64,000 bases of DNA from a bacterium. GTDB lineage: Bacteria > SZUA-182 > DTGQ01 > JAFGSM01. This document shows positions 15,531 to 61,419 of this stretch, piece after piece; position 1 is the stretch's first letter, and each line of letters begins with the position of its first letter. The DNA lies in contig JBLIRP010000003.1 in assembly GCA_049472355.1 (NCBI GenBank), forward strand, positions 2,636 to 66,635, read 5' to 3'. Both the position numbers and the translations under genes were made by a program. The notes beneath the pieces were generated by a model. That model made no database searches. It had not been told where the DNA came from and worked only from the letters and a program-made list of their open reading frames with translations.

Positions 15531-17030
15531 ATGCCGCAGATCTGGGACAAAACACACAAGGCAGCAACACGGCACATCCGGATCGAGCCGGTCACCCGTC
15601 TGGAGGGGCACGCCAAGATCGATATCTTTCTGGACAAGGACGGGAACGTGGAGGACACCTATTTTCAGGTGGTGGAGCTGCGGGGATTCGAGGAGTTCTG
15701 CAAGGGCCGTCCAGCCGAAGAGATGCCGAGGATCGTGACCCGCCTGTGCGGGGTGTGCCCATGGCCCCATCATATCGCATCGAGCACGGCACTGGACAAG
15801 CTGTTTGATGCACCACCCCCCGTGCCCGCCCTGAAGGTCCGGGAGATGGGGTATTGCGCCCATATGCTGGAGAGCCACCTGGAGCATATCTATGCCCTGG
15901 GACCGGCGCCCGATTTTGTTCTGGGGCCCGCAGCCGATCCCAAGAAGCGGAATGTGTTCGGGGTTATCGAGGCGGTCGGGCTCGAGGTGGGGAAAAAGGT
16001 GATTGTCCACCGGGGGTATGCCGTGGAGATCGAGAATATCGTGGGCGGGAAGTCCACCCATCCGGTCTTCAGCATACCGGGGGGCATATCCCATCCGATC
16101 ACCTCGGAGCAAAGGGACAGGATCAGGACGATGGCGGACCAACTGGTGGACTTCTGCGAATTCACCCTCACCATCGTCAATGACGTGATCCTCTCCAACA
16201 AGGAGTACATGGATATCATCCTGAATCAGGATCTGTACTATCACCGCTCCTATCACCTGGGGATGGTGGATGACGACAATCGATTGACGTTCTACGGAGG
16301 CACCCTGCGGATCATGGACCCGGAGGGAAACGAGACGGCCCGGTTCTGCGATGAGGAATACGCGGACTACATAGCCGAACACCCGGTGCCCTGGTCCTAC
16401 CTCAAGTTCCCCTATCTCAAGAGGATAGGGTGGAAGGGGATCACGGACGGCATGGAGAGCGGCCTGTACCGGGTGGCACCCCTTTCCAGGCTGAATGTGG
16501 CGGACGGGCTCACCACACCCAAGGCCCAGAAGGCATACGAGACATTCTTCAGCACCCTGGGAACAAAGCCGGTGCAGAATTCCCTGGCCTTTCACTGGGC
16601 GCGCGCCATCGAATGCCTGTATGCTGCCGAACGATTGCAGGAGCTTGCCAATGACGACGAGATCCTGAGCAGTGACCACCGGACGATCAGCAGGAATGTC
16701 GTAGGGGAGGGCGTGGGTGTCATAGAGGCGCCGCGGGGCACCCTGTTCCACCATTACAAAACGGACGGAAACGGCATTATCACCGATCTGAACCTCCTGG
16801 TGGCCAGTGCCCAGAACTATGGCGCCATGAACATGGATATCAAGAATGTGGCCCGGCATCTCATCAGGAACGGCGAGATCAGCAACGGCATCCTGAATAT
16901 GGTGGAGATGGGATTCCGCTCCTACGACCCCTGTTTTTCATGCGCCACCCATGCGGCCATCGGCGAGATGCCCATGCAGATCCGGATCTTCAACAGCAAC
17001 CGGGAAGAGATCAAACGCATATCACGATAG
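15531..17030 (+). CDS. mvhA: Group 3c [NiFe]-hydrogenase large subunit
   Basis: PVTRLEGH, L1 RLCGVCPWPH, EAPRGTLFHHY, L2 YDPCFSCATH with a C-terminal extension. Confidence 0.95.
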   Translation: MPQIWDKTHKAATRHIRIEPVTRLEGHAKIDIFLDKDGNVEDTYFQVVELRGFEEFCKGRPAEEMPRIVTRLCGVCPWPHHIASSTALDKLFDAPPPVPALKVREMGYCAHMLESHLEHIYALGPAPDFVLGPAADPKKRNVFGVIEAVGLEVGKKVIVHRGYAVEIENIVGGKSTHPVFSIPGGISHPITSEQRDRIRTMADQLVDFCEFTLTIVNDVILSNKEYMDIILNQDLYYHRSYHLGMVDDDNRLTFYGGTLRIMDPEGNETARFCDEEYADYIAEHPVPWSYLKFPYLKRIGWKGITDGMESGLYRVAPLSRLNVADGLTTPKAQKAYETFFSTLGTKPVQNSLAFHWARAIECLYAAERLQELANDDEILSSDHRTISRNVVGEGVGVIEAPRGTLFHHYKTDGNGIITDLNLLVASAQNYGAMNMDIKNVARHLIRNGEISNGILNMVEMGFRSYDPCFSCATHAAIGEMPMQIRIFNSNREEIKRISR

Positions 17031-17048: not shown

Positions 17049-17540
17049 ATGGCAACCGCAACGGACACCCTGGTCATCTACTTGGGCAACCCCATCATAA
17101 AAAACGACTGCATCGGGATCAGGATCGGACGGCGCCTTGAAGAGGACCTCAGCAATCACACGAATATCAGCATCCGTGAGTTCGTGGGCTCCCCCCTCGA
17201 CCTGATCACCCATTTTGCCGGATATCAACGGGTGATACTCGTTGACTCGATCATGACCGGCAGCATGGAGATCGGCACCGTGGTGCTGTTCAAGGAGGAC
17301 GAGATCCTCACCCATGCCGGAAACTACCATTCCCTGCACGGGATCAATCTTCCGGAGGCCCTGGCCCTGAGCAAACGAATGGGAATGGATATGCCCCCCC
17401 ATATCCTTTTGGTGGGCATCGAGATCGGGGATGCGGGCGAGTTCGGCGAGACCCTCTCGGAGGATCTCCACGGGCAACTCGAGGGTATCTATAAGAACGT
17501 CCGTTCGGTGGTATCCGGGTTTGCGCAGATGGAGATGTGA
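17049..17540 (+). CDS. Hydrogenase maturation endopeptidase
   Basis: LGNPIIKNDCIG, ILVDSI, SLHGINL. Lies directly after mvhA. Confidence 0.9.
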   Translation: MATATDTLVIYLGNPIIKNDCIGIRIGRRLEEDLSNHTNISIREFVGSPLDLITHFAGYQRVILVDSIMTGSMEIGTVVLFKEDEILTHAGNYHSLHGINLPEALALSKRMGMDMPPHILLVGIEIGDAGEFGETLSEDLHGQLEGIYKNVRSVVSGFAQMEM

Positions 17541-17542
17541 TC
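17418..17542 (+). repeat. Left copy of a 125-bp direct repeat (3' end of the maturation protease gene)
   Basis: Matches 32948-33072 with 6 mismatches and no gaps (offset 15530). Confidence 0.95.
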
Positions 17543-17830
17543 GGGCTTCCCTTCAATAATATGGGCCGTTTTTCGAATATTGACTCAAAAACAGGAAGTC
17601 TCCCTATTACGTAACCTTCGTTGCCTTGCCGAAAACAACGGCGGCCCCCGTATTTCATTCGGCAGCTTATCGCCTTCCATGGTTGACACGGAGCGATCCT
17701 TTTGATTATATTAAAACATATTCAAGCCGAACTCAGTCGAGAAAATTCACCTGAAGAGACTAAGGAACGCTATATCTGAGCCCCGCGGGTGATTCAGGGG
17801 GATTATCAGGCATATAAGAATAAATAGACA

Positions 17831-18040
17831 ATGCCAAGAAAAATAAGAGATCTCATCAAAGACTTGGAAGCTGTAGGATTCATCAACAGAGGAGGAAAGG
17901 GAAGTCATCGGAATTTTGTGCATCCAAATGTCAGAAAACCTATTACCATTTCCGGAAGGGATAGTGACGATGCAAAACATTATCAGGAGAAGGCCGTACG
18001 GCTTGCTATAAAGGAGGCAAAAGATGAGAGAGGGGTCTAA
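17831..18040 (+). CDS. hicA: HicA-family toxin
   Basis: LEAVGF..GGKGSHRNFVHP. Confidence 0.9.
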   Translation: MPRKIRDLIKDLEAVGFINRGGKGSHRNFVHPNVRKPITISGRDSDDAKHYQEKAVRLAIKEAKDERGV

Positions 18041-18263
18041 ATATGTAAAGATTATCGAGTGGTCCGAGGAAGATAACTGCTTTATAGGGAGTTGTCCGGA
18101 GCTTTTCTATGGAGGATGTCATGGTGATAACGAGCATGACGTTTTTGATGAGCTGTGTCAAATTATCGAAGAGACAATAGAATTGTATAAACGGGATGGC
18201 AAGCCGTTACCCCGTCCGCTTTCAGGAAAGGACTTTGTCAATAAAATGCAGAAGGTTGCATAA
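18024..18263 (+). CDS. hicB: HicB-family antitoxin (short form)
   Basis: IEWSEEDNCFIGSCPEL..GCHGD..GKPLP. Overlaps hicA. Confidence 0.9.
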   Translation: MREGSKYVKIIEWSEEDNCFIGSCPELFYGGCHGDNEHDVFDELCQIIEETIELYKRDGKPLPRPLSGKDFVNKMQKVA

Positions 18264-18420
18264 ACAATAACAGGGACAAATACCTTTGAGCTTACCAACC
18301 CCTTTCCTAAAACCCAGGGCTTGTTTACAGGGTCGCTGCCGTGGCAACGCTCATCTAAGGGGATGCCAGGGCGGGTCCGCTACGGAATTATGTGTACCAG
18401 CAGTATTATTATCCAGATGA

Positions 18421-18458
18421 ACCCTCATGCCCATTCAGGGCATCACAAGGCATAGAAA
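18421..18458 (-). repeat. Degenerate copy of the dispersed intergenic repeat
   Basis: Reverse complement TTTCTATGCCTTGTGATGCCCTGAATGGGCATGAGGGT resembles 46758-46796. Confidence 0.5.
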
Positions 18459-18540
18459 TCTATTTTCTGAACGAGGCAATGTCGATGGATTCCACGATGG
18501 TACAATTCATGGATGATACGTCAGCCAATGCGCGCCATTC

Positions 18541-21500
18541 CTAATTCCCTTGATCATGAGGCACGATGACCTGTGTCTCGAATGTATATCCACCTGAGCA
18601 GTCCGAAGCCGTCACCGTGATGGTATAGGTCCTGCCTTGAGAAGGCCCTGTCCTCTCGCTTCGAAGATTCAGGCTCAGATCCCCGGTTATCACGTAATCC
18701 GGTTCGAAGTCGTTTTCATCATAGACGATCTCGCCATACGTCTCACTCCCCTCCTGATCACTGTACTCGGAAATGCTTACGGAGGTAATGCTGACAGACG
18801 TATCCGGGTTGCGCATTGTCAGTCCGGAGACATCAATAGTAATGGGAACCATCTCGTGGTTCGGCGGCCAGAGGGTCTCTTTTGAGGGACAAATATCACC
18901 TGTGATCGGCCGGTTGTCACAAGGATCGCAGACATCGCCAATGCCGTCCCCGTCCGTATCCATTTGATCAGGGTTCGGCGTATCAGGACAGTTATCCTCT
19001 GGATCAGGCACATCATCAAGATCGGAGTCAAGCAAGGCGACCACGTAAAAAGAAAAGCTGTCTACGGATGATGTGAGGGTATTCAGAATCAGATCTTGAA
19101 CAGCCGGTTCCAATTCCCACTGCATGCCGTCAACAGAACGGAACACACCCAGGCTTTCTTCGTCTGCATTGGCGGGCTCCTCATATACCAAAGTAAGGTC
19201 CACAGGACCCGAGAGAGGATAAGATGCCGTAATATCGTAAACACTGGTTGAGGCAGTAAGGGTCTCAGGCACCAAGAAGCCTACATTCGTCTGGCTCGGA
19301 TCATAGCCGGTTATGGCAAGGACCGTATTCTTCAGAACTGCATTTTCCGGGACTTCGATGGTCACCGTTTCCGATTGGTTAGTGACGCCACCACCTCCTT
19401 GGCCGACCGTTGTAACACCGGATTGAACCGGGATACAGATGTCTGTGGGACTATTCGGACATGGATCACACACATCACCCTGATCGTCACCGTCGATATC
19501 GGATTGGTCGGGATTCGCAACATCAGGGCAATTATCTAAGTAATCCGGTCTGCCGTCATTGTCACTATCTTGAATCTCTACAACAACTATACTCGAGGGC
19601 ACAGGAGCTGTTAGACCATCGGATGCATACACATAACATGAATATTCCCCAGGTTCGTAAAGAGTGACGAAGCATTCATAGCTTTTACCATCCGCATAGT
19701 TTGTATCGTCAGGGTCCTTCTCATACATTATGTATGGATTTACACTGATTGGTTCACCATCCTTGAATATCACGACCTTGAGATGATTCTCTAAAGGCGG
19801 ATGGTTATCGATATCTGTGTATGATACTACGAAGGTAACGTATTCTCCTACTGAGGGAGTGATAACTGCCGGGGGTGATACAACTGGCGGCTTATCCTTC
19901 ACCACATCAAATTGAACCCCGCCAATTTTTTCCCTATCAATATATGAAGTCACTTCAAAGGTACGGGTCTCGCCCGTTTCTGCATATGGAGGTGCAACGA
20001 CTGTGATGATGGCTGTTTGGGTCTCACCCGGACCCAGGACTTGGGGATACTCCCGGTCTATTCTCGTTCCCCAGGGTGACGACCCGTCGATTTGAAATAA
20101 TTCCAGATAGACTAAGCCTGGCTGCTCGAAGGGATTCGTTACATCCAGAGTAATCACTCCGGGTGAATCAATCGGCTCCACATGCGTATTTTCCTGACCC
20201 TTGTTGTTATCCAGATTGCAATCCCAAGGATGATCGATCTCAACAACAATGCAGACATGACCGTCCGTTGTGGGTACCCATTCCACGCTTGCCTCCACTG
20301 GGCCAGGTTGTGCAGAAGGCACGTCCACGGGGACAGTATCTATGTGATTCCAGGTCTTTTGACCGGTACCCCACAAGGCCCACTTAAAGGTCACTTGCGT
20401 ATCATCAGCCTTTACGAGCCGTGAATTATAAATGTCTGCCTTTATGGTGTAGGTGGTTCCTTGCATGAGATCTGCGGAGGATACGACCACATCTCCTTCA
20501 TATAACTGTATGCTCGGGCTATCCCATACACAATCACCCGAGGCATCCAGATTCCATGTTGCGGGATCCCATTGACTGTAGGAATAAGGGTCCGGCAAAG
20601 GCTCATCCGGTAATACCCTAAAGACTGCCACGGCATCTCGATGGGTTTCCTGACCCTCAGCAACTACATTGGTTGGCCCCTCAGGTGCATCGGGCACAGT
20701 AAAGTTCAAACCGACGAGGTTCCCAAAAATTGATGATGCAGAACCGATCGATATGTCGCCAAATTTGATATCCACTGTTTCGGAGAAACCAAAACCGCTA
20801 CCTGCTATGATAAGGGGAATACCTTCCGACCCAAGGTCAGGTGACAGAGTAATATGTGCGCCATTATCCGTTACTGTAATCTGGCCTTCATAGGGGAGAC
20901 AATTATGGTGGGTTACTGTGATATACATGTCTCCCCCAGTGGATGGCGTAATCCGAAAGATGGCATTTCCGCTGGGGTCCGTATATTCAACCTTACGGAC
21001 GTCGTCTTCCTTCAGCAGACTGACCGCGGCAAAATGTACCGGGCCGTCTGCGTCCGTGACATTCACCACGAACTCCTGTGATCCATGTAATCCATCGGAT
21101 CCTATTCTTGACGGATGATTCACCGTAAGGGCCTTGGGCTGTTCCGTCCATATCGACATCTCCGGATCGCCGAATAGATGGAATTCCTCTAACGTCGTAA
21201 GTTCTATTTTTGGATCACCCCACCAAGGTTTCGGAGTCACGGCCATATGGACCTTCCCATAGGTATGTATCTGGCCAAGCTCAAAAATGGCCCCCGTACT
21301 CATGGTAGGATCAAAATCAGGCCACATCGCATCGTAGAAGCCCCTTATGAGATCGTCGTTATATCCGCTGTAACTATTCCTCGTAGCGCCGAATACGGCT
21401 ATCGCGCCTGTTTGATGCCTGAGAAGTTGCTCGCAGAAACACTCATAGTTCCAGGTATACCGATCTGTTTCGCCATCAAACCAGCCGCTTTGACAGCATA

Positions 21501-24500
21501 TACTGAATACCACGGGTAATCGGTCGGGGTTTGAAAATGCGGTAAAATCATCTGTGGTGAATCGGGGATTATCCCATCCATCAAACCATCCTTGGATTCC
21601 TGAGACATGATCCCAAAAATTTCGGGACAGTCCGTGATCTCGAAAATTCATAATAAGCCTGCCGTCTTGAATGGCATTGGTTATATCCGCTGTGTTGCCG
21701 TTCCAGGGAAAAGGTGGCTGTAATGCATCGGGGAGGGGGAGCCCGGCATCGTAATCGCCATTATTGTAGTTTGTGGGAATTAAGGCGGAGTTTGTGCAGT
21801 AGATCCTTTCTACCGAATACCCCTCGCCCACCAGCAGATCACGTATTTCCTCGGAGGTCAAAACGAAACGCCTGTCTTCGAAACCATCTAGCTCATTGAT
21901 CGTCGGGGTCTCGGGATAGTCTTGGTCCTGAAAGAATGCACATGCCGATATATTTGCATAGAAATCGGCATCATTCGTGGGATTACGTTCATAGTCCAGG
22001 ATCTTATTCACTATGGTAGTGGTTTGCGCCACACTATCAACCGAAATTCTCCCCACAAAGACATCCGGGAAACGGTCACTCCCATCGAGTGTGCCATAAT
22101 ACAAATCCGTGGCTATGTCGAAACCTCCATGCATGTCGCTCGGGTGGGGGGTTCGATAATGTGGCGGGATGAATTCGGCATCCCCAACCAGCAGTATATA
22201 GGTAGGGGGGGGATTCCAGGTGTTGTAAGCGTTCTGGAGATAATTCGTGATATCATCCGCGGTGATGGGGAGCGTGGCAATGCTGCTCGTGTCCACGATC
22301 TCCGTCCTTAATCCCTTCCGCTCCTTCCAGTCTGCCAGTGGCTGGAGCGCAGTAACGAAGCTATTGTCCGTGATGATCAGATAATCCACACTTGGACTCC
22401 CGATCTCCTTATATATTCGTGTAGGATACCGATCAGCGGGTTTATAGTTCAAGATAAAGGATTCGCACAGGGCTTCGAAGGCCTTAGCTTCAAGCCGTTC
22501 CTCAATACCCTGTATCTGTGCGGGTTTATCATAATTGATCCTCACCTCGATCTTCGGGTATACCTTTAGCTGTTGGGTCACCGGATTAAATTGCACGGGG
22601 AAGAAGACAATGGGAATGATTCTATGTCCCCTTATGATTATAGGTTCACCGATCGAGACACTCTTGGGCGGATAGAATTCATTCTTTGAATAGACCTCAT
22701 TGTCTTTGAAGAATTCTATCTCTCTCGCCATCCCTTCGGGTACGGCCATATCTATACGAGGCTGCTGGACAGGATAGACATTGTACCCCTCCCATATGGC
22801 AGGGACTGCGTATAATATCTCCACGGTTACATCAACGTCATAAGGGATTTCCAGATATCGTCTAATGACAGGAAGCCTCGGGCTTCCAATGGTGGTTGTA
22901 TGAAAGGCATGCGGTATATCCAGTCTATGATATACCTCACCGTCCACACGGATATTCGTCCTATACATACCCGGAAAATCGGAATCAAGGGCTATCCCTG
23001 TGGTATCCGAGGATTTGAGTGTTATCGAATGCAGATCATCAGCGGCGTCAGGTATAAACGGGGTCCATACTCGCGGTGGTTCAACGGTATAGGCATTGTA
23101 GCGCATAGCTTGTCCGCCGTCCGGGTTCGTGACAATGATATGATAGGTGCCCTCGGCAAGACCTGCAGGCACTAGGAACCTCATGCAGTCCGGGTCAATA
23201 AATTCTACCGGACTAATGGGTATGGTCTCACTGCCTCCTTCGGGCACAAAGTCCACCTGGGGCCCGGGCGGCCCAGGTTGGAAGCCTCCCCCTGAAATCG
23301 TTACCCATGTGGATACCGTGTTGGCCCACGCCGATGGATTTACCTCAAAGATAGAAAATGCCTGGCATCCGAAGGCATTTTCAAAAGCCTGATTGGCAGA
23401 GAAAAGAGAATCCTGGAGCCACTCCAAATCAGGGAGTGGAAGATAACTATAACCCACAGGTAGGCTGATTGGATTGGGTAAGCCTGTAATGGGATCCAAT
23501 AAATATGGAGGCGGCCAGGGGTTAAGGCCGTAAATATCATCATAATAGTATATGCCGTCTGGCGTATAATAAGACCACCAAGGTTTAACCTTATAAGGGT
23601 CCCAGACGAGGGCAGGCACCGAGAGGATGGTGTCAGTCGTAAACGAGTCGATCAAAGGTGTGGGGATGCCTGTGACAGGATCCGGCGGCGAAAGGATGGG
23701 TGACCATCCAGACCAGAGAATATTGTAGGGCGGCAGTGCGAACCAGCGGTAATTTTTGTCGGGCGGCATTGAGAATAAGCGAAGGAGCAAGCTTTCTTCA
23801 TCCAGGTAGATTGTGGGCAGATTGCGAATCGAGGCATTGACCGGGCCTATGCATGTGAAAGATGCCCCATCCGGGCCGTTTCCATTCCATTGAAGTGAGA
23901 TGGTATGCTCTTCCCCCTCGACGGTCACAGTGATCGTGATCTCATCTGTCCCGTTCCAGATATAGTCAGCAACAGGGAAGGTCAGATCCGCCTCCCCGTC
24001 CCAGGGATCGTCTACTGACTTTATGACCGGGACAATAAGAAGCCCCACTTCCCCCTCCGAGGTTGTTCTGAAGGGAATAATGGGATATCGCACGTCTGTT
24101 CCATCCCAGTACACCGGGATCACCATAAGATCAAGGACCGTGTGATTGGCCGTATCCCAGAAAAGGGGCATCACCCGGATGAAGAGGTCCTCAGCAGGAT
24201 TGACAGGATAAAATTTTAGCATCTCCTCAGAAATACCAATAGCGGAATACCCCATAAAGGGCACAATCCGAAAGGAGGCATCCCCCTGAGGCTCCCAGGA
24301 AAAGGTGATCTGCGCGTCATCCGCAAGCGGATCCGATGAAAAGAACACATTGGGCTCATACGGGCGGGCCATAAAAAGCCGATCCCTGGAGATGAAAAAC
24401 CCCGCCTGATCCGCCAGGGAAAGCCTGAGGGATGATTTTACCGTTGAATCCCAGGTGATGAAGCTAAAGGGATCCTCCCACGTAGGGACCATAAACTCAT

Positions 24501-27500
24501 ATTCCGCGGTCCTGTCCGGCCATTCGAAGGAGAGCTGGAGCATTCTGTCTACGCTATCATAAGTGTACTGCAATGATACAGGGGTTATGGGTTCAGAGAT
24601 TGGTGGGTCAAAGATGAGCCTCATCCCGTCTTCAACCTCCCCCCATCGGATCGGAATCGCTGGAAATGCGGTATCTTTATACGGGTCCCATTCAAACGCT
24701 GCAAGCAAGATGACGGGTCCCTGGGGTTCCTCAGTAAGGGGCACAAACGGGGGGTAAGGGGAATATTGAACAGGTGGATTCTCCCAATCCATTTCTACCG
24801 GCACCATGGCCAGGTAGTAAGGCGCATCGGGATCATCCGAAAGTCCCAGCACCGGGAAGTCGCATTTGTCATACTCGTAGCCAATGGGCATGGTCGGGAA
24901 AAAGATATAACCACCCGGGCCGCCCATGAAGCCGATATCCAGCCCGACCATGGGATCAAAGGAAAAGGCGATCTGACTCAGGCACTGCACGGTTTCCATG
25001 ACCCCGTACTGGCCGCCAACAGCGTGAGAAAGCGCCGGGAAGCTGGTATCCCCGAAATCCTCGGGCCATTCCGAGGGGGGCCTTACGAACCGTATCTCAA
25101 CATTAAAACGGATGGGATCCCCGGCGGAAATAGCCATATCGTAGATATCACCGCTATTGAGCGGATGGCTGAACTCGTAAACCGTTACGCCGCTGCTGTT
25201 GGAAAATGCCCCCCTGCCGTTTCGGGTGCCCCCCTGCTCGGTGTCGCTGACCGTACATATACACTCCGGTGCACAGGGGCACAGATCCGGATCCGTGGTC
25301 CTTGCCTCATCCAGAAATCCGATCTCTTCGATCTCCGGATTATAGAGGATCAGGTCATCAGGGGGCTCGATCACCCCATCTTTATCAAAGGAGATGCTGG
25401 CGCTGTTCCCCACATCCGCATGGTTGGCCCAGATCGCGATATAGAGATTGAATGCATCATTCATGACCAGCATGCCACCATCCACTGTGCCGCCGCCCGG
25501 GATATTCACCGGGAAATCCTGGCTGGCGGCATAATCCCATTCCCCCTCATCCAGAACCCCGTCGATGCTGGGTGAGCCGCAAACACTGTGAAGGACCACG
25601 TTGTCACTGTCACACGTATCACCTATTCCATCCCCATCCGTATCCGCCTGGTCAGGATTGGGTACATCGGGACAGTTATCACAGACATCCCCTATGCCAT
25701 CACTGAGATAACCATAGCCTGCTAATCCATTCTGATAATGCTGCAGTATTTCCTCCGCTGTCAATGCCCTGTCGTAGATTGCTACTTCATCGATGTGGCC
25801 ATTGAAGACAAATCCGAATTGTTGAGGATCGATCATCTTAAGCGCGCCAATCGTTAATGGCGCAGGGATATCTACGGTTTGATTCTCATATGATTGAGAA
25901 CTATCAAACTGACCGTTTATATAGATTCTCTTCTCAGAGGCATCATAGGTAGCGACAACATGATACCATGTATGTGTTGATAAATGGGTGCGGGATACCA
26001 AATTGGTCCATCCTGCACCATTCGATGTGTGAAAATTGATCTGATTGCCGGTTGCACCTCCATACCCGACACCGAAAACCTCCATGCCATAAGTATGGGT
26101 TAGACTAAATTGTTTTGAAATAATGCGCTTTTGAGTATTTCCAAGATCCTGATTCAAATAAATCCAGGCCTCAAGAGTAAAAGTTGGATTATTTAGGGTG
26201 GGCGAGTCAGGAACTTCGATATAATCATCTATACCGTCAAAGCTGAGAGCAGTCAGGCTTCGGCCATCAGTCCATAGTGGATCATTTAGCAAGATGCCAT
26301 GGTTTGAATTAATAGAATCTGCTGCTGTTGTTCCTGCCCCTTCATCCAACTTCCAGTAAGAAACCAAATCGGTTGCTTGGGTGCCGTCCGTATCCGCCTG
26401 ATCAGGATTGGGTACATCAGGGCAGTTATCTATGTAATCCGGCACGCCATCACCGTCTGTATCCAGATGGATGGTCAGGGGGGAACTGCATACCTCACTT
26501 CCATCCTCTACCCCGTCATGAGGAGTTACGCAGGCCTCCCATGAATCACCACCAGTGGTCTCCTGACTCACAATCGTGTCTTTCTGGCCTTGATACAGGG
26601 CCTGAATCTGTTCGGCAGACAAGGCCCTGTTGTATACTCTTACTTCATCTATGATCCCTTCGATATGATAATCTCCAAGCAATGTTTCCAGTCTTCCTAT
26701 CCGCACCTCATGCGTCAAACTTTCTGGCAGGTCCTCAAACCAGTGTCCATTGTTCACGCCATAAGCTACAGTCAAGGTCTCTTCAATGCCGTCAGTATAC
26801 AGCTTGTATTCGAAACCATCAGATGTGACCACCACATGGTGCCAGCCTGGGCCCAAGGCTGTAATAGTGTGGATCAAGACATTATCAGTATGGCCGCCTA
26901 TATAATGCTGAAAATAAAGATTGTATATGTCACTGACTCCAAAACTCATATAGCTCTTTGAATCAGGCACAGATGACGAAAATATGACATCACCAGCAGC
27001 ATTGTCGCAGTTTATCCACGCCTCAATCGCGCCTGTAGACTCAGACATATAGAGGTTCTGGCCTACCTGTATATAATCATTGCGACCGTCAAACTTATAT
27101 GCCCCTTCAAGCGAGTCATGCCCGCCTTGCCTTTCCCACCTGGCCCCGTGGACTGTTCCATGATTCCCGGCCGGGCTGTAGTCCTTTGTCCAGTCTGCCA
27201 TACTCAAGGCGCTATCGGCCTTAAACGGCATGTTCAGTAAGGTGATAGGAATATCGTTCATGTACCAATTGATAATATGATCCACGGGATTTCCATCCGC
27301 ATCAGATGTAGTGCATGTGACTGTCAGATCGTCATCATCTGTTGCAGAGACTGGGCCTAAGGCCACATCAGAGACAACAGGCGGGTGGTTGTTGATGCCC
27401 AGATGGATCTTCACTGTATTGCTGCATACTTCAGGGCCATCATGATTTCCATCATTAGGGGTGACGCAGGCAGTCCAGTATTCTGCGGCCCTTGTCTCAT

Positions 27501-30500
27501 GCTTTACTATGGTGTCATAGCCCTTTTGGAAATTTTCCAAGACCTGCTCTGCTGACAATGGCCTATCATACATCCTCACTTCATCGATCATGCCGTCGAA
27601 TTGATAGTTGCCATTGACGTTCTGAAACCTGCCTATCCTAAAATCATGTGTCACGGGCGTGTGTAAGCTGAAGTGCCCGAACCATCTGCCATCATTCTCA
27701 CCGGTAGCTACGGTCAAGGGCACTTCCTGCCCATCTATATATATCTTATATTTATCGCCGTCTGAGGTGAGTATGACATGACTCCACTGCCCGGCCTGCA
27801 GATGCTCATTCGTGGCAATCATATTATTGTATGCTGGCGGCACATACAACTGGACATAAAGCCCATAGCTCGGATGCAAGCCGAAACATAGCGAGCTTTT
27901 TGAATCAGAGACTGAATGAGATATTATAGGATCAACGTGATTTATGCTGTCGCGCTTTATCCATGCCTCTATGGACCCCTGAAACTTATCCTCGAAAAGG
28001 TCCTGGCCGACCTGGATGTAATCATCGACGCCGTCGAAATCATAGGCCCCGGAGCCATCAGGGCCGCCCGTGCTGTTCCATACAGCCCCATACACCACGC
28101 CATTATTTGCGAGTTGGCTGTAATCTTTGGCCAGGGTCGCTTCACTGCCTCCGTTGGCCTCAAAAGGCATGTTCAGGAGAGATGTCGGGTTCCAGTTAAT
28201 GATAGCCTTTGCCCCTGGAGGAAGAGGTGGGTAATCAACTACCAGATCGTCATACGTCGTGGCAGGGTCAGGTGAAATCTCAGGGGGATAGGATGAAGGA
28301 TCGGTTGGATCAGTCCCCATCTCGACCTCAATGCCATCATTGAATCCGTCGCCGTCAGTGTCAGGATTGTCGGGATCTGTACCGTTGTCATATTCCTCTC
28401 CATTGGTGAGGCCATCTGCATCTTGTTCCGAGTCGGCATTGGCCCTGGTAAAATCCGTACCCCATGTCACCTCCCAGGCATCCGGTATACCGTCATAGTC
28501 AGTATCCCCGGATGGATGAAAATTGATAATTGGTTTAGAGCGTACCGCAAACCCGCCGTCAGAATTTCTCACCTGCAGGCCGTAATAGCCCGGAGGCAAT
28601 TCGGACGGAATATTAAATGCAAAGGTCTCGGAATCAATATAAGTTACCGTTTCAATTGTTATCGGAAAAATTATCTTATAGATGCCTGTTCCATTAACCA
28701 CAAAGGCCTGATTGCCTTGTACAAAGAGATCCGTTACAGTGCCGTCGGGTATATCATTTTTGTATATTTGTTTGAATAGTTGATCACCATCCGGATCCTC
28801 GACACCTGCGACCTTGATCCCAAATTCACCACCTAAAATAACACATGGAGGTGCTCCAAAACCGGCAAGGTCAATACTCGTGGCCGTATCTTCAGTATTG
28901 AGTGAGCTCAGAATAAAAGGGCTTGCAGGATTAGAAATATCTATCACCTGGAGCCCTGAATCACCGGCGGCCACATAGGCATAGGAGCCTTCAACCGCAA
29001 CATCATAGGCTATATCTGGTGTAATGCAGGTGCCCACAATAAAAGGATTCATTGGATTGGAAACATCAATCACCTGGAGTCCTGACAGTCCGTCAGCCAC
29101 ATAGGCATAGGAGTCGCTGACAAATACCCTATTGGCAAAATCCGGGGTAGAGACCGAGCCAACGAGGGTCGGATCTGCAGGATTGGAAATATCTATAATA
29201 GCAAGGCCTGTATCTCCATCAGCAATATGGGCGTATGAACCTCCAATAAAAATCCCACTCGCCATACCTGTGGTTTCACAGGATCCTATGAGCACAGGAC
29301 TGGCCGCATCCTGTATATCAATCACCTGGAGCCCTGCCTGTCCATCAACCACATAGGCATAATTGCCTGAGACAGCAACATACTTGGCATAGCCAGGGGT
29401 ATCACATGAGCTCTCAACCCTAAATTCTTCGCCCTTGATATTGACTATTGATAACCCTGAGTACCCATTAGCCACAAAGGCATAATCGCCACTGACATAG
29501 ATCCCGCTGGCCTGTGCCGGAGAGGGAGTGCCCTCCCCTAATTCTCCATAGCGGGCAAGATATCCTCCGTACCCTGAAGGTACTCCGATTCCCCATTGTT
29601 TTGTAGGCCGAAGGGCCACCTCAGGTGTCAAAAAATTCTGACCGGATACCGTTACAATGGGAGATTCTCCCCAAGGCACATTGAGAGGATCAACGGAAAG
29701 GATGGACACAGGCAGGCAGTTATAGGTGGTCTGATACACCTGGTCAGCTATAGCCTTGATCTGGTTAAACTCTGCTTCATCAATAGGAGGCCTTAAGCCA
29801 ACATCAGGCGGCAGGTCAAGGGGAATAGGATTACCCTCCGGATCGGTAAATCCCGGGGGCGGGTAGGGAAGAAAAGTATCTGTATCCAGGTCAAAGTAAG
29901 CAAGTCCTCCACCATAGTCCATAGACAGATTATAGACAATAACAACAAATCCCCAAGGATCAATCGGATCATCCGAACTAGTACCCACCATCACAGGCGC
30001 CGCCTGCAGTGGTACGGCGCTCCATTTAGGCAGTTCATTAAGAGGGGGACACTTACGGTTGGAGAAAGGATCAGGCGGTGAATAGACGTTAAGGGTCATA
30101 GGCCACAGAAAACCATAAGGAGGCATAGGATGCCAGTTTTCTGAAGCATACTCATAAGCTCCCATATCGGTCCTGGGGATTCCATCACCATCACCGTCCC
30201 AGGGCCGCCTGTTCCCATTTATATCAGTGTAGAGTGTAGACCGCGGATCACCCATATCAATACAGGGAGAATGAGGACTAAGAGAAAAATCTCCCCATAC
30301 CCGACCGTTAAATAAAGGATCAACATTTATATTATTACTACCTTGGAATCCGCCTTGAATATCAGAATAGGTAACTGAAGGAAATTCCCCAGGAAATTCC
30401 CCCATCCCTGTCCCTGCTAGTGTGATTGCACCATGAGAATTATTCCATATAATACAATTTGTAATGGTTGCAGTTGTCAAAGAAGGAAAGGCGCAATCTA

Positions 30501-32265
30501 TTCCACCGCCTGAATTTTCCGTAATAGTACAGTTGGTTATGATTGGTGAACTCTCATTATGGCAAGATATCCCGCCACCAAAATTGGCTGTATTGTTTCT
30601 GATAATGCAATTAGTAATAATTGGAGAAGAATCCTCACAATATATCCCCCCACCCACCCTGGGATCCAGACCGGAGCCAGGGCCTGCTGAATTTTCTGTA
30701 ATAGTACAATTGATTATGATTGGTGAACTCCCAGTAAGGCAATATATCCCACCACCAAACATGGTGACTGTATTGTTACTAATAGTGCAATTAGCAATAG
30801 TTGGAGAAGAACCCACGCAATATATTCCGCCACCATTACTAGTATGACCATTTCTGATGGTAAATCCCTCTACAATGGAATTATCTCCTTCTCCACTATG
30901 AAAATGAAATCCCTGCCCTGAGCCTTCACATTCAATAATACAGTTTCTCGGGCCTTTTTGTGATTCAATCCTGATTGCCTTACCATTAAAATCAATATTC
31001 TTATTGCCAGGTCCTGTGTAGATCCCATTTGCAACCAACACAGTATCCCAATCATCGGCAGCATTTATGGCTTCTTGTATAGTAGAGTAATTAGCAGGGA
31101 CATGGATTAAGCGGTTTTTTTCATAAGCACCCATATCACTGATAAAAAAACCATCCCTATCTCCATCTAGTGGCCTGATTCTCCCGTCTTTATCAGCTAT
31201 TAATGGTATAATGTTAAAGCCTGCATCAATACAGGGTGACTGCTCCTGAAGGTGATAATCTCCTGCATCTATATTCACAAACAAGGGATCAGTATTAATG
31301 TTGCCTATCCCACTGTAACCACCCTGAATGTCGGAATAGGTAATTGTACACGTACTATGATGATCAAAGATTTGATCTGGAGAATTATTCCAGAAAATAG
31401 AGTTAATAATCTCTGTTGCAGTTCCCTGTTCGCAATAAAGCCCACCACCATGCTGAGAGGCCGAATTATTAAACATAACACAATGGACACAATACGGAGA
31501 AGCATTGTGGGCGCAATATATGCCGCCCCCAGAGTTTGATGAATTCCCTGACATTATGCAGTTTGTAATAGTGGATGAAGAATTAGATCCATAAAAAATT
31601 CCACCGCCACCGACTGCTGTGTTACTTCTGATATCACAATTAGTAATATCTAAAGAAGAATCCGCACAATATATACCTCCCCCAGTGTCTGCTGAATTCC
31701 CTGAGATTATGCAATTTGTTATTGTAGATGAAGAATTAGATCCATAAAAAATTCCACCGCCAACACTGTTTACCGTATTGTTACTAATATTACAACTAGT
31801 AAGAGATGGAGATGAACCCAGGCAATATATACCTCCACCATCACTGCTAGCGGTATTGTTACTGATATTACAGTTAGTAATAGTTGGAGAAGAATTCACA
31901 CAATATATCCCGCCACCTTGAATAGCCAATCCATTGCGTATAGTCAATCCATTCAAAACAGCATTACTTCCTTCTCCACTCTCAAAGGTTACTACTGTTC
32001 CTGACCCTTCCCCATCTATAATCGTGGCTGCCGGATCTTCCCCTTGGATAGTAATTTCCATTCCCCAAAAATCAATATTTTCATTATAGGTGCCAGGCGC
32101 TACGATGATTACATCCCCATCAACTGCATGAGCAATAGCCATCTGAATATATTGATAGTCATCCGGTACATAGATTTCCGCTGCCTGGGCATTCACAAAA
32201 AAGAAGAAACAAACTCCTATAATAAAAAACAGGGTACTGAATAAAGCAACAAAAACTTTTTTCAT
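18541..32265 (-). CDS. Giant (4574 aa) secreted multidomain protein: parallel beta-helices, LVIVD repeats, IPT/Ig folds, 3 LamG domains, TSP3 Ca-binding repeats, and a C25 (gingipain-like) propeptide and peptidase
   Basis: Signal peptide (..AQA). GGGIYC..SSPTITNC repeats. YAYVADG.SGLQVID repeats. FDGVDDYI..IDEVRMY LamG motifs. DNCPD.PNPDQ.D.DGDG repeats. C25 motifs YILLVGD, TDLYY, PDVFVGRIS, RDHG, SICCQSG, LFGDP. C-terminal LWPPNH..LRSER..VPHD domain. Confidence 0.92.
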   Translation of the reverse strand: MKKVFVALFSTLFFIIGVCFFFFVNAQAAEIYVPDDYQYIQMAIAHAVDGDVIIVAPGTYNENIDFWGMEITIQGEDPAATIIDGEGSGTVVTFESGEGSNAVLNGLTIRNGLAIQGGGIYCVNSSPTITNCNISNNTASSDGGGIYCLGSSPSLTSCNISNNTVNSVGGGIFYGSNSSSTITNCIISGNSADTGGGIYCADSSLDITNCDIRSNTAVGGGGIFYGSNSSSTITNCIMSGNSSNSGGGIYCAHNASPYCVHCVMFNNSASQHGGGLYCEQGTATEIINSIFWNNSPDQIFDHHSTCTITYSDIQGGYSGIGNINTDPLFVNIDAGDYHLQEQSPCIDAGFNIIPLIADKDGRIRPLDGDRDGFFISDMGAYEKNRLIHVPANYSTIQEAINAADDWDTVLVANGIYTGPGNKNIDFNGKAIRIESQKGPRNCIIECEGSGQGFHFHSGEGDNSIVEGFTIRNGHTSNGGGIYCVGSSPTIANCTISNNTVTMFGGGIYCLTGSSPIIINCTITENSAGPGSGLDPRVGGGIYCEDSSPIITNCIIRNNTANFGGGISCHNESSPIITNCTITENSGGGIDCAFPSLTTATITNCIIWNNSHGAITLAGTGMGEFPGEFPSVTYSDIQGGFQGSNNINVDPLFNGRVWGDFSLSPHSPCIDMGDPRSTLYTDINGNRRPWDGDGDGIPRTDMGAYEYASENWHPMPPYGFLWPMTLNVYSPPDPFSNRKCPPLNELPKWSAVPLQAAPVMVGTSSDDPIDPWGFVVIVYNLSMDYGGGLAYFDLDTDTFLPYPPPGFTDPEGNPIPLDLPPDVGLRPPIDEAEFNQIKAIADQVYQTTYNCLPVSILSVDPLNVPWGESPIVTVSGQNFLTPEVALRPTKQWGIGVPSGYGGYLARYGELGEGTPSPAQASGIYVSGDYAFVANGYSGLSIVNIKGEEFRVESSCDTPGYAKYVAVSGNYAYVVDGQAGLQVIDIQDAASPVLIGSCETTGMASGIFIGGSYAHIADGDTGLAIIDISNPADPTLVGSVSTPDFANRVFVSDSYAYVADGLSGLQVIDVSNPMNPFIVGTCITPDIAYDVAVEGSYAYVAAGDSGLQVIDISNPASPFILSSLNTEDTATSIDLAGFGAPPCVILGGEFGIKVAGVEDPDGDQLFKQIYKNDIPDGTVTDLFVQGNQAFVVNGTGIYKIIFPITIETVTYIDSETFAFNIPSELPPGYYGLQVRNSDGGFAVRSKPIINFHPSGDTDYDGIPDAWEVTWGTDFTRANADSEQDADGLTNGEEYDNGTDPDNPDTDGDGFNDGIEVEMGTDPTDPSSYPPEISPDPATTYDDLVVDYPPLPPGAKAIINWNPTSLLNMPFEANGGSEATLAKDYSQLANNGVVYGAVWNSTGGPDGSGAYDFDGVDDYIQVGQDLFEDKFQGSIEAWIKRDSINHVDPIISHSVSDSKSSLCFGLHPSYGLYVQLYVPPAYNNMIATNEHLQAGQWSHVILTSDGDKYKIYIDGQEVPLTVATGENDGRWFGHFSLHTPVTHDFRIGRFQNVNGNYQFDGMIDEVRMYDRPLSAEQVLENFQKGYDTIVKHETRAAEYWTACVTPNDGNHDGPEVCSNTVKIHLGINNHPPVVSDVALGPVSATDDDDLTVTCTTSDADGNPVDHIINWYMNDIPITLLNMPFKADSALSMADWTKDYSPAGNHGTVHGARWERQGGHDSLEGAYKFDGRNDYIQVGQNLYMSESTGAIEAWINCDNAAGDVIFSSSVPDSKSYMSFGVSDIYNLYFQHYIGGHTDNVLIHTITALGPGWHHVVVTSDGFEYKLYTDGIEETLTVAYGVNNGHWFEDLPESLTHEVRIGRLETLLGDYHIEGIIDEVRVYNRALSAEQIQALYQGQKDTIVSQETTGGDSWEACVTPHDGVEDGSEVCSSPLTIHLDTDGDGVPDYIDNCPDVPNPDQADTDGTQATDLVSYWKLDEGAGTTAADSINSNHGILLNDPLWTDGRSLTALSFDGIDDYIEVPDSPTLNNPTFTLEAWIYLNQDLGNTQKRIISKQFSLTHTYGMEVFGVGYGGATGNQINFHTSNGAGWTNLVSRTHLSTHTWYHVVATYDASEKRIYINGQFDSSQSYENQTVDIPAPLTIGALKMIDPQQFGFVFNGHIDEVAIYDRALTAEEILQHYQNGLAGYGYLSDGIGDVCDNCPDVPNPDQADTDGDGIGDTCDSDNVVLHSVCGSPSIDGVLDEGEWDYAASQDFPVNIPGGGTVDGGMLVMNDAFNLYIAIWANHADVGNSASISFDKDGVIEPPDDLILYNPEIEEIGFLDEARTTDPDLCPCAPECICTVSDTEQGGTRNGRGAFSNSSGVTVYEFSHPLNSGDIYDMAISAGDPIRFNVEIRFVRPPSEWPEDFGDTSFPALSHAVGGQYGVMETVQCLSQIAFSFDPMVGLDIGFMGGPGGYIFFPTMPIGYEYDKCDFPVLGLSDDPDAPYYLAMVPVEMDWENPPVQYSPYPPFVPLTEEPQGPVILLAAFEWDPYKDTAFPAIPIRWGEVEDGMRLIFDPPISEPITPVSLQYTYDSVDRMLQLSFEWPDRTAEYEFMVPTWEDPFSFITWDSTVKSSLRLSLADQAGFFISRDRLFMARPYEPNVFFSSDPLADDAQITFSWEPQGDASFRIVPFMGYSAIGISEEMLKFYPVNPAEDLFIRVMPLFWDTANHTVLDLMVIPVYWDGTDVRYPIIPFRTTSEGEVGLLIVPVIKSVDDPWDGEADLTFPVADYIWNGTDEITITVTVEGEEHTISLQWNGNGPDGASFTCIGPVNASIRNLPTIYLDEESLLLRLFSMPPDKNYRWFALPPYNILWSGWSPILSPPDPVTGIPTPLIDSFTTDTILSVPALVWDPYKVKPWWSYYTPDGIYYYDDIYGLNPWPPPYLLDPITGLPNPISLPVGYSYLPLPDLEWLQDSLFSANQAFENAFGCQAFSIFEVNPSAWANTVSTWVTISGGGFQPGPPGPQVDFVPEGGSETIPISPVEFIDPDCMRFLVPAGLAEGTYHIIVTNPDGGQAMRYNAYTVEPPRVWTPFIPDAADDLHSITLKSSDTTGIALDSDFPGMYRTNIRVDGEVYHRLDIPHAFHTTTIGSPRLPVIRRYLEIPYDVDVTVEILYAVPAIWEGYNVYPVQQPRIDMAVPEGMAREIEFFKDNEVYSKNEFYPPKSVSIGEPIIIRGHRIIPIVFFPVQFNPVTQQLKVYPKIEVRINYDKPAQIQGIEERLEAKAFEALCESFILNYKPADRYPTRIYKEIGSPSVDYLIITDNSFVTALQPLADWKERKGLRTEIVDTSSIATLPITADDITNYLQNAYNTWNPPPTYILLVGDAEFIPPHYRTPHPSDMHGGFDIATDLYYGTLDGSDRFPDVFVGRISVDSVAQTTTIVNKILDYERNPTNDADFYANISACAFFQDQDYPETPTINELDGFEDRRFVLTSEEIRDLLVGEGYSVERIYCTNSALIPTNYNNGDYDAGLPLPDALQPPFPWNGNTADITNAIQDGRLIMNFRDHGLSRNFWDHVSGIQGWFDGWDNPRFTTDDFTAFSNPDRLPVVFSICCQSGWFDGETDRYTWNYECFCEQLLRHQTGAIAVFGATRNSYSGYNDDLIRGFYDAMWPDFDPTMSTGAIFELGQIHTYGKVHMAVTPKPWWGDPKIELTTLEEFHLFGDPEMSIWTEQPKALTVNHPSRIGSDGLHGSQEFVVNVTDADGPVHFAAVSLLKEDDVRKVEYTDPSGNAIFRITPSTGGDMYITVTHHNCLPYEGQITVTDNGAHITLSPDLGSEGIPLIIAGSGFGFSETVDIKFGDISIGSASSIFGNLVGLNFTVPDAPEGPTNVVAEGQETHRDAVAVFRVLPDEPLPDPYSYSQWDPATWNLDASGDCVWDSPSIQLYEGDVVVSSADLMQGTTYTIKADIYNSRLVKADDTQVTFKWALWGTGQKTWNHIDTVPVDVPSAQPGPVEASVEWVPTTDGHVCIVVEIDHPWDCNLDNNKGQENTHVEPIDSPGVITLDVTNPFEQPGLVYLELFQIDGSSPWGTRIDREYPQVLGPGETQTAIITVVAPPYAETGETRTFEVTSYIDREKIGGVQFDVVKDKPPVVSPPAVITPSVGEYVTFVVSYTDIDNHPPLENHLKVVIFKDGEPISVNPYIMYEKDPDDTNYADGKSYECFVTLYEPGEYSCYVYASDGLTAPVPSSIVVVEIQDSDNDGRPDYLDNCPDVANPDQSDIDGDDQGDVCDPCPNSPTDICIPVQSGVTTVGQGGGGVTNQSETVTIEVPENAVLKNTVLAITGYDPSQTNVGFLVPETLTASTSVYDITASYPLSGPVDLTLVYEEPANADEESLGVFRSVDGMQWELEPAVQDLILNTLTSSVDSFSFYVVALLDSDLDDVPDPEDNCPDTPNPDQMDTDGDGIGDVCDPCDNRPITGDICPSKETLWPPNHEMVPITIDVSGLTMRNPDTSVSITSVSISEYSDQEGSETYGEIVYDENDFEPDYVITGDLSLNLRSERTGPSQGRTYTITVTASDCSGGYTFETQVIVPHDQGN

Positions 32266-32947
32266 GAGCTTTGCCTCCTTACGGTTTTATGTATGATGAG
32301 ATAACCTATGCTTTTATGTCCCGTATGATGCAGAACAGGATTTATAAAACGCTATCCTCAGCCGGATATTTAATGAATTGGCCGTAATTCTTTGACTAAA
32401 AAGATAGTAAAAAAACAGTAAAAGGATTTTTTGGAAAAGCACATGAACAAAAACCAATTAAACGACTACATCATAGTTATAAAAGCAAGCGATATGATGC
32501 GCAGGTGAGATTACGTTCCTGGTTCCAATAGCACATGCCGTGAGACGATGGGTATTGCTGCGAAATCCCAATGGAACAGGTTTGTGTGAGAGAAAAGGAT
32601 TTCGGGCAGGAGAAATCGTGGGAAAATAAAGGACTGAAAAACGAAATTCGATTTGTAAATGATGGTTTTTTCCCTATCAAATCCCCTTTTCAAAGGTTAA
32701 GCAATAGGAAAATATGTACATCGTATATCTTCCTATCCATGCATAAAGCCAGCGTCATTTTAGATTATGAAATAAAAAAAGGAATATTTATTATTATAAA
32801 GAATAGACTATCAAGACATGATAGTATGCGCTATATATATCACGATATAAAAATTTGTCAAGAACCAAATAAGATAAAAATGAACTCAATTCTTTTCGGC
32901 TTGATACCCTTTCTCATTAGCATCAAACACTGGGTTGGGCGATCGGG

Positions 32948-33072
32948 ATCGAGATCGGGGACGCGGGCGAATTCGGCGAGACCCTCTCGGAGGAGCTCCA
33001 CGGGCAACTCGAGGGTATCTACAAGAACGTGCGTTCCGTGGTATCCGGGTTTGCGCAGATGGAGATGTGATC
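32948..33072 (+). pseudogene. Orphan duplicate of the last ~41 codons of the maturation protease (right direct repeat)
   Basis: Encodes IEIGDAGEFGETLSEELHGQLEGIYKNVRSVVSGFAQMEM* with no upstream gene body. Confidence 0.92.
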
Positions 33073-33088
33073 AATCCCGCCCTTGATA

Positions 33089-34051
33089 CTATAGGTCATG
33101 GATGGATTTCCTCGGGCTGGCCCTTTTCTTGAAACGCATCTTGAAGGGAATGTCCCAATTGACCTTGACGAAGAAGGCGAAATCATCGTCGGTGTCATGG
33201 ATGCCGCAGCGCACCCCGGCCCCCAGATCCAGATCGCCCCGTATCCATGGATGGCTCTTCTGGGTGAGGACCCAATACACCCCGGTCCTGACATACACGC
33301 TGTTTTGACTCCCTCCGTCGATCCCCGTGGTGACCCACTCGGTATCAAGGGAATATCTGCAAAACCGGGTAGGCAGTGAAAGGCCGACCAGCATACTCAG
33401 GGAGTTGTATGCGGATGTCTCCACCAGCATTTCGATGTTGTCCGGGGAACCCGAAAGGATGTCCAGATTGATATCCGTCAGCAGCAGCATATTATACCAC
33501 TCCGGGAATGTTTTGGTGAAGATGATCTGGGGCCTGTAATGGTAGGTATGGTACTCCTCGGGAGTATCCTCATCGTTGTTGATTGTCGGGATCTGAACGG
33601 AAAAGGCGGTTATGGTATTTACATAGGGCCTGAAGAGTTTTTTCAGATGGTATTTGGTGCCGATGGAGATATCGGACATGCCGTTCCTGTCCTCACCCCT
33701 GGTGGGATTATTGATAAAGGTGTTGAGCCTGAGAAAAAGCTCCCAGTTGGGTGCAAGTTCATATTTGAAATCGATAGGCGGACGCAGGCACTCGTCCTGG
33801 ATGGTATCCGATACCTTGGGCTTGATGGATATTTCAAGATTTTCAATGTGCGGCATACCAGGGAAGATCTTTCCGGAGGGCTCCCCATCACAACTCATTT
33901 CTTCGGCGGTCTCTTCCATGGTTTGCTCAACCGGAACGCTGCGTTCCTCAGGAAAAGCGGGGATTGGAAAAAAGACGAGAACGAGGAGTATCCATATGAT
34001 TATATCACGCAGTGGTGAGAAGCGACGTGATCGGATACGGCTTTTCATCAT
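33089..34051 (-). CDS. Secreted protein, possibly an outer-membrane beta-barrel of the MetA/phenol-degradation transporter type
   Basis: Signal peptide, GMSDISIGTKY motif, amphipathic beta-strand pattern near the C-terminus. Confidence 0.5.
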   Translation of the reverse strand: MMKSRIRSRRFSPLRDIIIWILLVLVFFPIPAFPEERSVPVEQTMEETAEEMSCDGEPSGKIFPGMPHIENLEISIKPKVSDTIQDECLRPPIDFKYELAPNWELFLRLNTFINNPTRGEDRNGMSDISIGTKYHLKKLFRPYVNTITAFSVQIPTINNDEDTPEEYHTYHYRPQIIFTKTFPEWYNMLLLTDINLDILSGSPDNIEMLVETSAYNSLSMLVGLSLPTRFCRYSLDTEWVTTGIDGGSQNSVYVRTGVYWVLTQKSHPWIRGDLDLGAGVRCGIHDTDDDFAFFVKVNWDIPFKMRFKKRASPRKSIHDL

Positions 34052-35788: not shown

Positions 35789-35792
35789 CCCA

Positions 35793-54277: not shown

Positions 54278-54374
54278 AAAAATGACAATGGAGAAATGCG
54301 ATGAACGGTTACAAAAATAGAATGGAAAAGAGAGCATATCCAAAACAATGGATAATAACAAAGTTGGAATTGAA

Positions 54375-61417: not shown

Positions 61418-61419
61418 GA

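Follow-up and report, generated by a model that had tools for sequence, protein, structure and literature searches.

Introduction

Insertion with long target duplication has been described for restriction-modification units by Furuta, Abe and Kobayashi in 2010 (PMC2853133). As set out there, the inserts are shorter than 20 kb, lack mobile-element genes and lie between direct repeats of more than 30 bp; the repeat can span a stop codon, the gene is left intact, and relatives show the empty site. Partial duplications have been obtained experimentally in Escherichia coli conjugation, where partly degraded linear DNA was re-circularised and integrated by a single crossover (PMC3240628). According to that report, partial duplications were found in 56 of 60 clones (109 to 950 bp in the 14 sequenced), and the circle route was ten times more frequent than HFIR, which gave insertion-deletions.

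Displaced gene ends are described in other settings as well. In the rhs, cdi and Vibrio T6SS effector-immunity arrays, a conserved upstream anchor is retained and the old 3′ end is displaced downstream, and an HFIR-like mechanism with later spread by homologous recombination has been proposed for this C-terminal displacement (PMC5361080). In E. coli K-12, the prophage e14 places ~15 kb between icd and a diverged C-terminal orphan, icdC; it undergoes SOS-induced site-specific excision, which would yield a working hybrid gene (PMC13626634). The 12.6-kb H47 genomic island of E. coli is integrase-free and flanked by long imperfect direct repeats, and its excision and integration have been demonstrated, also without RecA (PMC3191183). 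Finally, WHO elements at yeast FBA1 supply a replacement 3′ end and displace the old end downstream, where the orphan serves as a second homology arm; they are described as needing an element-encoded endonuclease and a fixed cut site (PMC7282813).

Here we describe an island behind a hydrogenase maturation protease gene, found in a 64,000-nucleotide stretch of bacterial DNA (the window). It is a known kind of insertion, a long target duplication with 3′-end displacement, except that restriction genes are missing and the two copies are allelic. With a 15.4-kb insert and a direct repeat of 125 to 132 bp, it works like the class of Furuta et al. but is no restriction-modification member, because only hicA, hicB and a giant protein gene lie inside and R and M genes are absent. 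Unlike that class as published, its copies are diverged alleles (93 to 95% identical, with a third-position bias); a copied target accounts for this less well than a donor allele does. The locus resembles the E. coli conjugation system in its partial duplication of a homologous gene and in calling for host recombination only; the laboratory substrate, however, was a plasmid identical to the chromosome, and the route proposed here is by analogy. In the rhs, cdi and T6SS arrays, selection acts on the swapped end as a toxin domain; at this locus, the end belongs to a housekeeping gene and the cargo is unrelated. The distance and the hybrid gene expected upon excision recall e14, but no phage or integrase gene is present. 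In contrast to H47, the repeat here is protein-coding, and neither the endonuclease nor the fixed cut site of WHO elements was found. A limited literature search, with the Furuta supplements outside it, gave no title on this locus or on genome-wide allelic gene-end scars at housekeeping genes.

Results

A low-GC island behind an intact protease gene

The 15.4-kb block between the repeat copies holds hicA, hicB and the giant gene. The features of the locus, in window coordinates, are as follows.

13916-14398, 14478-15527 and 15531-17030, plus strand: mvhD-mvhG-mvhA type [NiFe]-hydrogenase genes (Pfam FlpD, Oxidored_q6 and NiFeSe_Hases; VhuG and VhuA as best NCBIfam matches)
17049-17540, plus strand: intact hydrogenase maturation protease gene, 163 aa, last of the mvhD-G-A type operon (HycI, PF01750; TIGR00072 above cut-off)
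17411-17542, plus strand: left repeat copy, 3′ end of the intact protease gene (from self-comparison and outgroups; core 17418-17542 in the earlier note)
17543-17567, plus strand: diverged copy of the native spacer between the protease gene and the convergent gene (13/25 identical to 33073-33097)
17683-17712, plus strand: sigma-70-like promoter match upstream of hicA (11/12, consensus match only)
17831-18040, plus strand: hicA toxin gene, 69 aa (PF07927, E = 1.5e-11; GC3 0.38)
18024-18263, plus strand: short hicB-family antitoxin gene, 79 aa, overlapping hicA (no Pfam match; homologues named HicB family among the 120 listed)
18420-18467, plus strand: REP/MITE-like element between hicAB and the giant gene, a degenerate member of a ~50-bp repeat family found genome-wide (75 to 85% matches on 12 other contigs)
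18541-32265, minus strand: 13.7-kb gene for a predicted secreted modular protein of 4,574 aa (beta-helix, LVIVD, LamG, TSP3, C25 propeptide and peptidase)
32266-32940, no strand: AT-rich non-coding island end, 675 bp (GC 0.38 in 32001-33000), with the new junction at 32940/32941
32941-33072, plus strand: right repeat copy, an orphan, 5′-truncated protease 3′ end of 42 codons plus stop, undamaged (core 32948-33072 in the earlier note)
33089-34051, minus strand: convergent host gene with a weak MetA-pathway family match, the native downstream neighbour

The mvhD-mvhG-mvhA genes have a GC3 of 0.74 to 0.79 and are syntenic in three related genomes (G003, G004 and G006); this host operon is the likely recombination anchor. 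From hicA to the giant gene, GC3 is 0.38 to 0.48 (0.48 in the giant gene itself) versus a genome median of 0.715. The adjacent hicA and hicB genes, with a candidate promoter of their own known from the consensus match only, have the predicted layout of a HicAB type II toxin-antitoxin pair. The giant protein has a hydrophobic N-terminus, a His-Gly at residue ~3544 and a Cys at ~3590, which we take to be the catalytic dyad of a C25 peptidase. Its C25 region has named homologues in archaea as well as in several groups of bacteria, with 62 to 63% identity for the best. Along the giant gene, GC3 climbs from 0.29 in the N-terminal beta-helix part to 0.55 to 0.58 mid-gene, a gradient that suggests a gene assembled from pieces.

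Family profiles, run on the four open reading frames (ORFs) between or overlapping the copies and on two short ORFs, revealed no recombinase, integrase, transposase or phage gene in the island and, apart from hicA, no nuclease gene. The two short ORFs of the AT-rich end had no Pfam match, and this end gave no blastx match to the called proteins of the genome. No tRNA or Rfam family was found at the island or the repeat, and the island ends lack terminal inverted repeats longer than 10 bp.

The flanking copies as alleles of one gene end

According to the earlier note, the last 125 bp of the protease gene recur 15,530 bp downstream with six mismatches, all at third codon positions, and both copies appear to have evolved as functional genes. 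The first statement was confirmed exactly: 17418-17542 matches 32948-33072, and the mismatches (17432, 17441, 17465, 17492, 17501 and 17507) all fall on codon position 3 of the protease frame, five of them synonymous and one Asp/Glu (P = 0.0011 for 6/6 under position-blind decay). The boundary itself lies further left. Since positions 17412-14 read ATC (Ile) in the right copy and in 7/7 outgroup alleles, the right copy starts at 32941 (equivalent to 17411), and the refined repeat measures 132 bp; of its nine differences, eight lie at codon position 3 and one is a first-position Val/Ile change (P = 0.0007 for at least 8/9 at third positions). By outgroup comparison, the Val/Ile change sits in the left, intact copy, and it is one of three differences found close together within the repeat's first 7 bp. 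Beyond the protease stop, weaker homology extends for ~25 bp (17543-17567 versus 33073-33097; 13/25 identical; P = 0.004). The longest exact run common to the copies, which are 93 to 95% identical, is 35 bp, and the assembly holds no third copy of this protease end.

The orphan right copy comprises 42 codons without a frameshift, stop or private amino-acid change, next to a 25-bp spacer that differs at 12/25 positions. Because the two alleles are ~94% alike and the outgroups only 60 to 77%, the differences were polarised site by site against the outgroups instead of by a two-allele tree. Derived changes were found on the lineages of both copies, 6/9 coding differences looking derived on the left copy, and no crossover point between the alleles emerged. 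Decay after a fresh duplication is ruled out by the undamaged orphan, the 12/25 spacer differences and the derived changes on both lineages. As the earlier note had argued, both copies appear to have evolved as the ends of working genes in different lineages, i.e., as alleles.

The site is empty in related lineages

Six metagenome loci related to this one were found. In three of them (L032, L033 and L034), which represent other species and not strains, the protease gene is followed directly by the convergent gene at 33089 and the repeat is single, so that the empty site looked for in the earlier note exists. The other three have a different flank (L035), stop at the gene (L036) or hold a distant homologue (L037). 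Across relative loci, several of which are only ~1 kb long, the C-terminus was matched once in 7/8 and not at all in 1/8. The island is likewise absent from G003, where the protease gene precedes the same three-gene downstream block in inverted orientation (L012 3896-7503), and from G004 and G006, where it precedes other genes of the downstream block. These three genes (33089-36881), which adjoin the island on its right, are flipped together in G003, and G006 lacks them at this position; the region behind the protease gene is therefore a variable slot across the order. Judged by the empty site in relatives, the block is an insertion.

An AbiEii/AbiEi-like type IV toxin-antitoxin pair lies directly upstream of mvhD in the window (12040-13492), and G004 has ORFs resembling AbiEii/AbiEi two genes downstream of its protease gene (L013 2070-3711).

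Searches for the source of the island gave no long match in 12 other genomes of the order, only short domain-level ones. A contig scan of GTDB with a single protein gave no match; repeated with an alignment, it returned three loci equal in size and match to those of G003, G004 and G006, plus one 28% homologue. In viral contigs, none of 29 pattern matches to the protease was confirmed. With regard to a carrier, phages gave only matches of 22 to 27% identity and plasmids gave none. Since neither the donor nor a same-species empty allele was recovered, the direction of the 3′-end replacement is one that we infer.

Displaced gene ends recur across the genome

Comparison of the genome with itself (148 contigs, 87.5% complete) gave 1,895 intra-contig matches. 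Filtering left 113 entries, and 33 of them are gene fragments that have no paralogue around them. All 33 of these orphan-type entries are direct repeats; among the paralogue-type entries, 12/80 are inverted. Twenty orphan fragments lie downstream of the intact gene. One match, weak and gapped, was dropped, so that 19 pairs on 17 host genes remain; the count is approximate, as genes were called with a home-made program and some entries are reciprocal or fall in spurious frames. The 19 pairs are 37 to 431 bp long (median, 128 bp) with a median identity of 89%, and their members lie 1.0 to 15.8 kb apart. Their mismatches number 74, 62 and 166 at codon positions 1, 2 and 3, respectively; the third-position excess holds without the focal pair (P = 1e-12) and is seen singly in 12/19 pairs, the other 7 having no clear excess. 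All 20 intervening blocks fall below the genome GC.

The host genes include an hdrA-like gene, V-ATPase subunit D, an AcrB-like gene, an ABC operon and an aro junction, all but V-ATPase D being named from sequence and context. No motif is shared over the 19 breakpoints (136 4-mers tested; best P = 0.008, uncorrected), and dyads are not enriched at them (6.05 versus 5.62). GATC, tried as a breakpoint motif, was observed 3 times versus 2.5 expected and rejected. Repeats at C1 95287/109386 and on C90, C104, C75 and C73 were excluded, being tandem or multi-copy intergenic repeats. In a survey of the lineage on 20-kb pieces, G001 had 2 pairs in 359 kb and G004 had 0 in 383 kb, and the present genome under a looser filter had 37 pairs in 3.43 Mb, with 7 inverted entries let in; since these pieces were chosen by hand and come only from the lineage itself, the counts carry no claim of enrichment.

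Individual loci differ in layout. On the contig of the window (C72 64827-73597, from window position 62192 to beyond the window end), an hdrA-like gene is followed by two displaced pieces of itself: 89 bp of internal sequence lie 1.4 kb downstream and 187 bp of its 3′ end lie 5.4 kb downstream, with a transposase-like ORF between them. The event is of the kind described here but was later split. At both the hdrA-like and the AcrB-like loci, one gene is represented by collinear fragments, which shows that orphans get trimmed and split and that the present length of an orphan need not be the original one. Three hdrA-like genes also cluster with a second mvhD within the window (52307-64000). On C60 (17843-33770), a 15.8-kb low-GC block with Hsp70-like genes, PEP-CTERM-like genes and a PIN-like ORF has on either side a 97-bp copy of the end of a PPOX-class oxidoreductase gene; the neighbour expected at an empty site was not within 1.5 kb at the loci of five relatives. 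On C56 (10040-16962), the start of one ABC permease gene and the end of the next lie adjacent to each other before a 4.5-kb low-GC insert in the ABC operon, and this fragment pair is a telescoped copy of two whole genes. A 205-bp displaced copy of most of the 3′ region of V-type ATPase subunit D lies 3.2 kb downstream of it on C31 (1528-4921), and related pieces are found on C1 (5324-5567 and 17456-17575). The genome has two Rpn-family genes; both of these Rpn/YhgA-like (PF04754) genes (C65 7342-8331 and C127 52113-53090) are inside or beside duplicated-fragment blocks.

It is conceivable, though we put it forward tentatively, that this lineage routinely adds pieces of sister-species chromosomes behind almost any gene, recombinase-free, each leaving a datable allelic scar, and that the scars show long target duplications to be a donor plus a recipient allele for which no restriction enzyme is needed. 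Were such capture routine, the orphan ends would act as renewable landing arms for further cargo swaps. A single locus of this kind is ordinary and the value lies in the genome-wide set, and allelic scars give a means to test how insertion with long target duplication arises.

A probable route through host recombination

For the protease locus, we consider it probable that the gene end was displaced by incoming DNA of a related lineage, joined homologously on one side and illegitimately on the other. The incoming fragment of the related lineage's chromosome would have carried the cargo together with the protease end of that lineage and 25 bp of the adjoining spacer; in the donor, the cargo would already have stood ~25 bp behind the protease stop. 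Uptake may have been by natural transformation or another route, and a homologous crossover in the protease gene or its operon would have been made by RecA. A non-homologous join at 32940/32941 would then have completed the insertion, keeping the gene whole and moving the spare 3′ end 15.5 kb downstream. Of the genes relevant to such a route, comEC, dprA and recA are present (recA is partial, at a contig end), and Ku had no match in the genome.

The joins could have occurred in either of two orders. End-joining into a circle may have come first, followed by a single crossover, for which there is experimental precedent for duplications; or a long upstream anchor may have been combined with a back-join into the gene, which would give the same final picture. 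A repeat this short (93 to 95% identical, longest exact run 35 bp) would be ill suited to a single crossover, unless it has been trimmed since. Once formed, the unit could spread by ordinary double crossover, and the orphan would thereby be renewed and kept undamaged. Excision between the copies, judging by their sequences, would leave a working hybrid gene, and HicAB, as the earlier note had suggested, might act against such loss.

Two proposals of the earlier note are upheld in part. That incoming DNA brought its own allele agrees with the insertion and with the diverged working alleles, but which copy is the resident one rests on inference. That capture was homology-facilitated would fit the layout, with a putative homologous anchor at one end and a putative illegitimate join at 32940/32941, and host functions would suffice for it. 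Yet the recipient deletion at the illegitimate join that is the general HFIR outcome is absent; there is a duplication instead, and the native neighbour is intact. As strict HFIR, in the published account, usually leaves deletions and not duplications (PMC3240628), the name needs qualifying here.

Should this reading be correct, host functions alone sufficed to place a toxin-antitoxin pair and a 13.7-kb gene for a surface protein behind an operon of core energy metabolism. Island finders keyed to integrases and tRNAs would miss such a block.

Alternative explanations

The earlier note had also suggested an att site served in trans. An origin of this sort, in which the island is the remnant of an integrase-driven element or such an att site, as with e14 at icd, and the integrase was lost or lies elsewhere, strikes us as unlikely, although it comes closest among the alternatives. 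The geometry is that of icd/icdC, including synonymous and Asp/Glu differences (PMC13626634). An imperfect inverted repeat with 10-bp arms and a 6-bp C6 spacer (window 17384-17409) ends 2 bp before the repeat boundary, and its score was reached by ~6/400 random gene positions. This dyad, however, is outside the repeat, its spacer is absent from the right copy, and it is not kept in the close relatives compared; the comparison at this gene covers one insertion. The genome encodes two full tyrosine recombinases, one XerC-like (beside hslVU-type genes) and one XerD, and neither serine recombinases nor resolvases (PF07508 and PF00239) had a match in it. Two short integrase-like fragments occur on C98 and C79, and with the genome 87.5% complete an integrase could be unassembled. 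Against this stand the 17 different host genes with repeats of 37 to 431 bp and no common motif, the unenriched dyads at breakpoints, and the lack of a protease relative in viral contigs or of any closer phage or plasmid match. The proposal of an att site served in trans is not supported, as the 17 host genes share no breakpoint motif and the only full tyrosine recombinases are XerC/XerD-like.

A true target duplication, in which 132 to 157 bp of the host's own sequence were copied around the cargo at break repair and the left copy was later allele-swapped, is slightly less probable still. Restriction-modification insertions are reported to give such duplications, which often cover a start or stop codon (PMC2853133), and the 6/9 coding differences that look left-derived are what allele replacement of the working gene would give. 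The second event, though, would have to end its tract at the homology edge, include the 25-bp spacer and recur at many loci; moreover, the repeats in the published Table 2 are 44/46 to 49/49 identical (PMC2853133), and the island has no restriction gene.

Homing of the WHO type, with a nuclease that cuts sensitive alleles at ~17411 and an element that supplies a resistant 3′ end, is very improbable. WHO elements give the same layout (PMC7282813), and the three differences clustered in the first 7 bp of the repeat include the only first-position change, which is left-derived; but no DNA endonuclease family was found in the island, and the 19 breakpoints have no common cut motif.

Evidence from sequencing runs

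Part of the left end of the island is present in 20 sequencing runs, four of which, from four studies, were compared (X1, X4, X8 and X10). Island contigs in 4/4 runs differ from the window at 0 to 1 base, except for one 1,144-bp piece with 14 differences. The island contig of X1 is 12,701 bp long with one difference, and inside the giant gene the pieces listed for X4, X8 and X10 show no differing letters. A sister lineage, ~87% identical, co-occurs in the compared runs and carries the protease end and the convergent gene. Among the sites listed, this lineage (in X1, X4 and X10) has the letter of the left copy at at least four spacer sites, and it matches the left spacer at 16/25 if the unlisted sites equal the window.

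That the locus is a two-strain assembly chimera or the remnant of a second paralogous hydrogenase operon is hardly credible: the assembly does have 148 contigs, the sister lineage does co-occur and no contig among those listed in the four runs bridges the right junction, but the longest exact run between the copies is only 35 bp, a chimera would not leave a 5′-truncated fragment fused to an AT-rich end, the island contigs are near-identical in all four runs, and 17543-36000 holds nothing of mvhD, mvhG, mvhA or the first 121 protease residues, with the other protease paralogues of the genome being 26 to 27% identical. Both objections that the earlier note had raised against itself thus fail as far as they are testable.

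For the junction or circle reads joining 17542 to 33073 that the earlier note had proposed, no counterpart was seen among the 14 joints listed (of 24), in contigs only. In X1, depth is ~10 on the island versus ~15 on the flanks, a figure that is no share of cells and was not taken as a sign of excision.

In X8, one contig (17508-18028; 21 differences, 2 gaps) spans the left junction. Its protease end is followed by a version of the hicA region that is 96% identical to the one here, and the protease-hicAB link therefore exists in a second lineage. Since the neighbouring X8 contig departs from the window sequence at 18435, this second lineage probably carries other cargo after hicAB. In X1, the contig at the right end of the island (31733-32876) is the one with 14/1,144 differences, versus 1 in the adjoining 12.7-kb contig, so the right end may have been exchanged between strains. 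Run X4 holds a contig without one 153-bp repeat unit of the giant gene (31573-31727). Elsewhere in the window (46430-46921), a 29-bp inverted repeat pair lies 388 bp apart with an extra arm, possibly IS ends.
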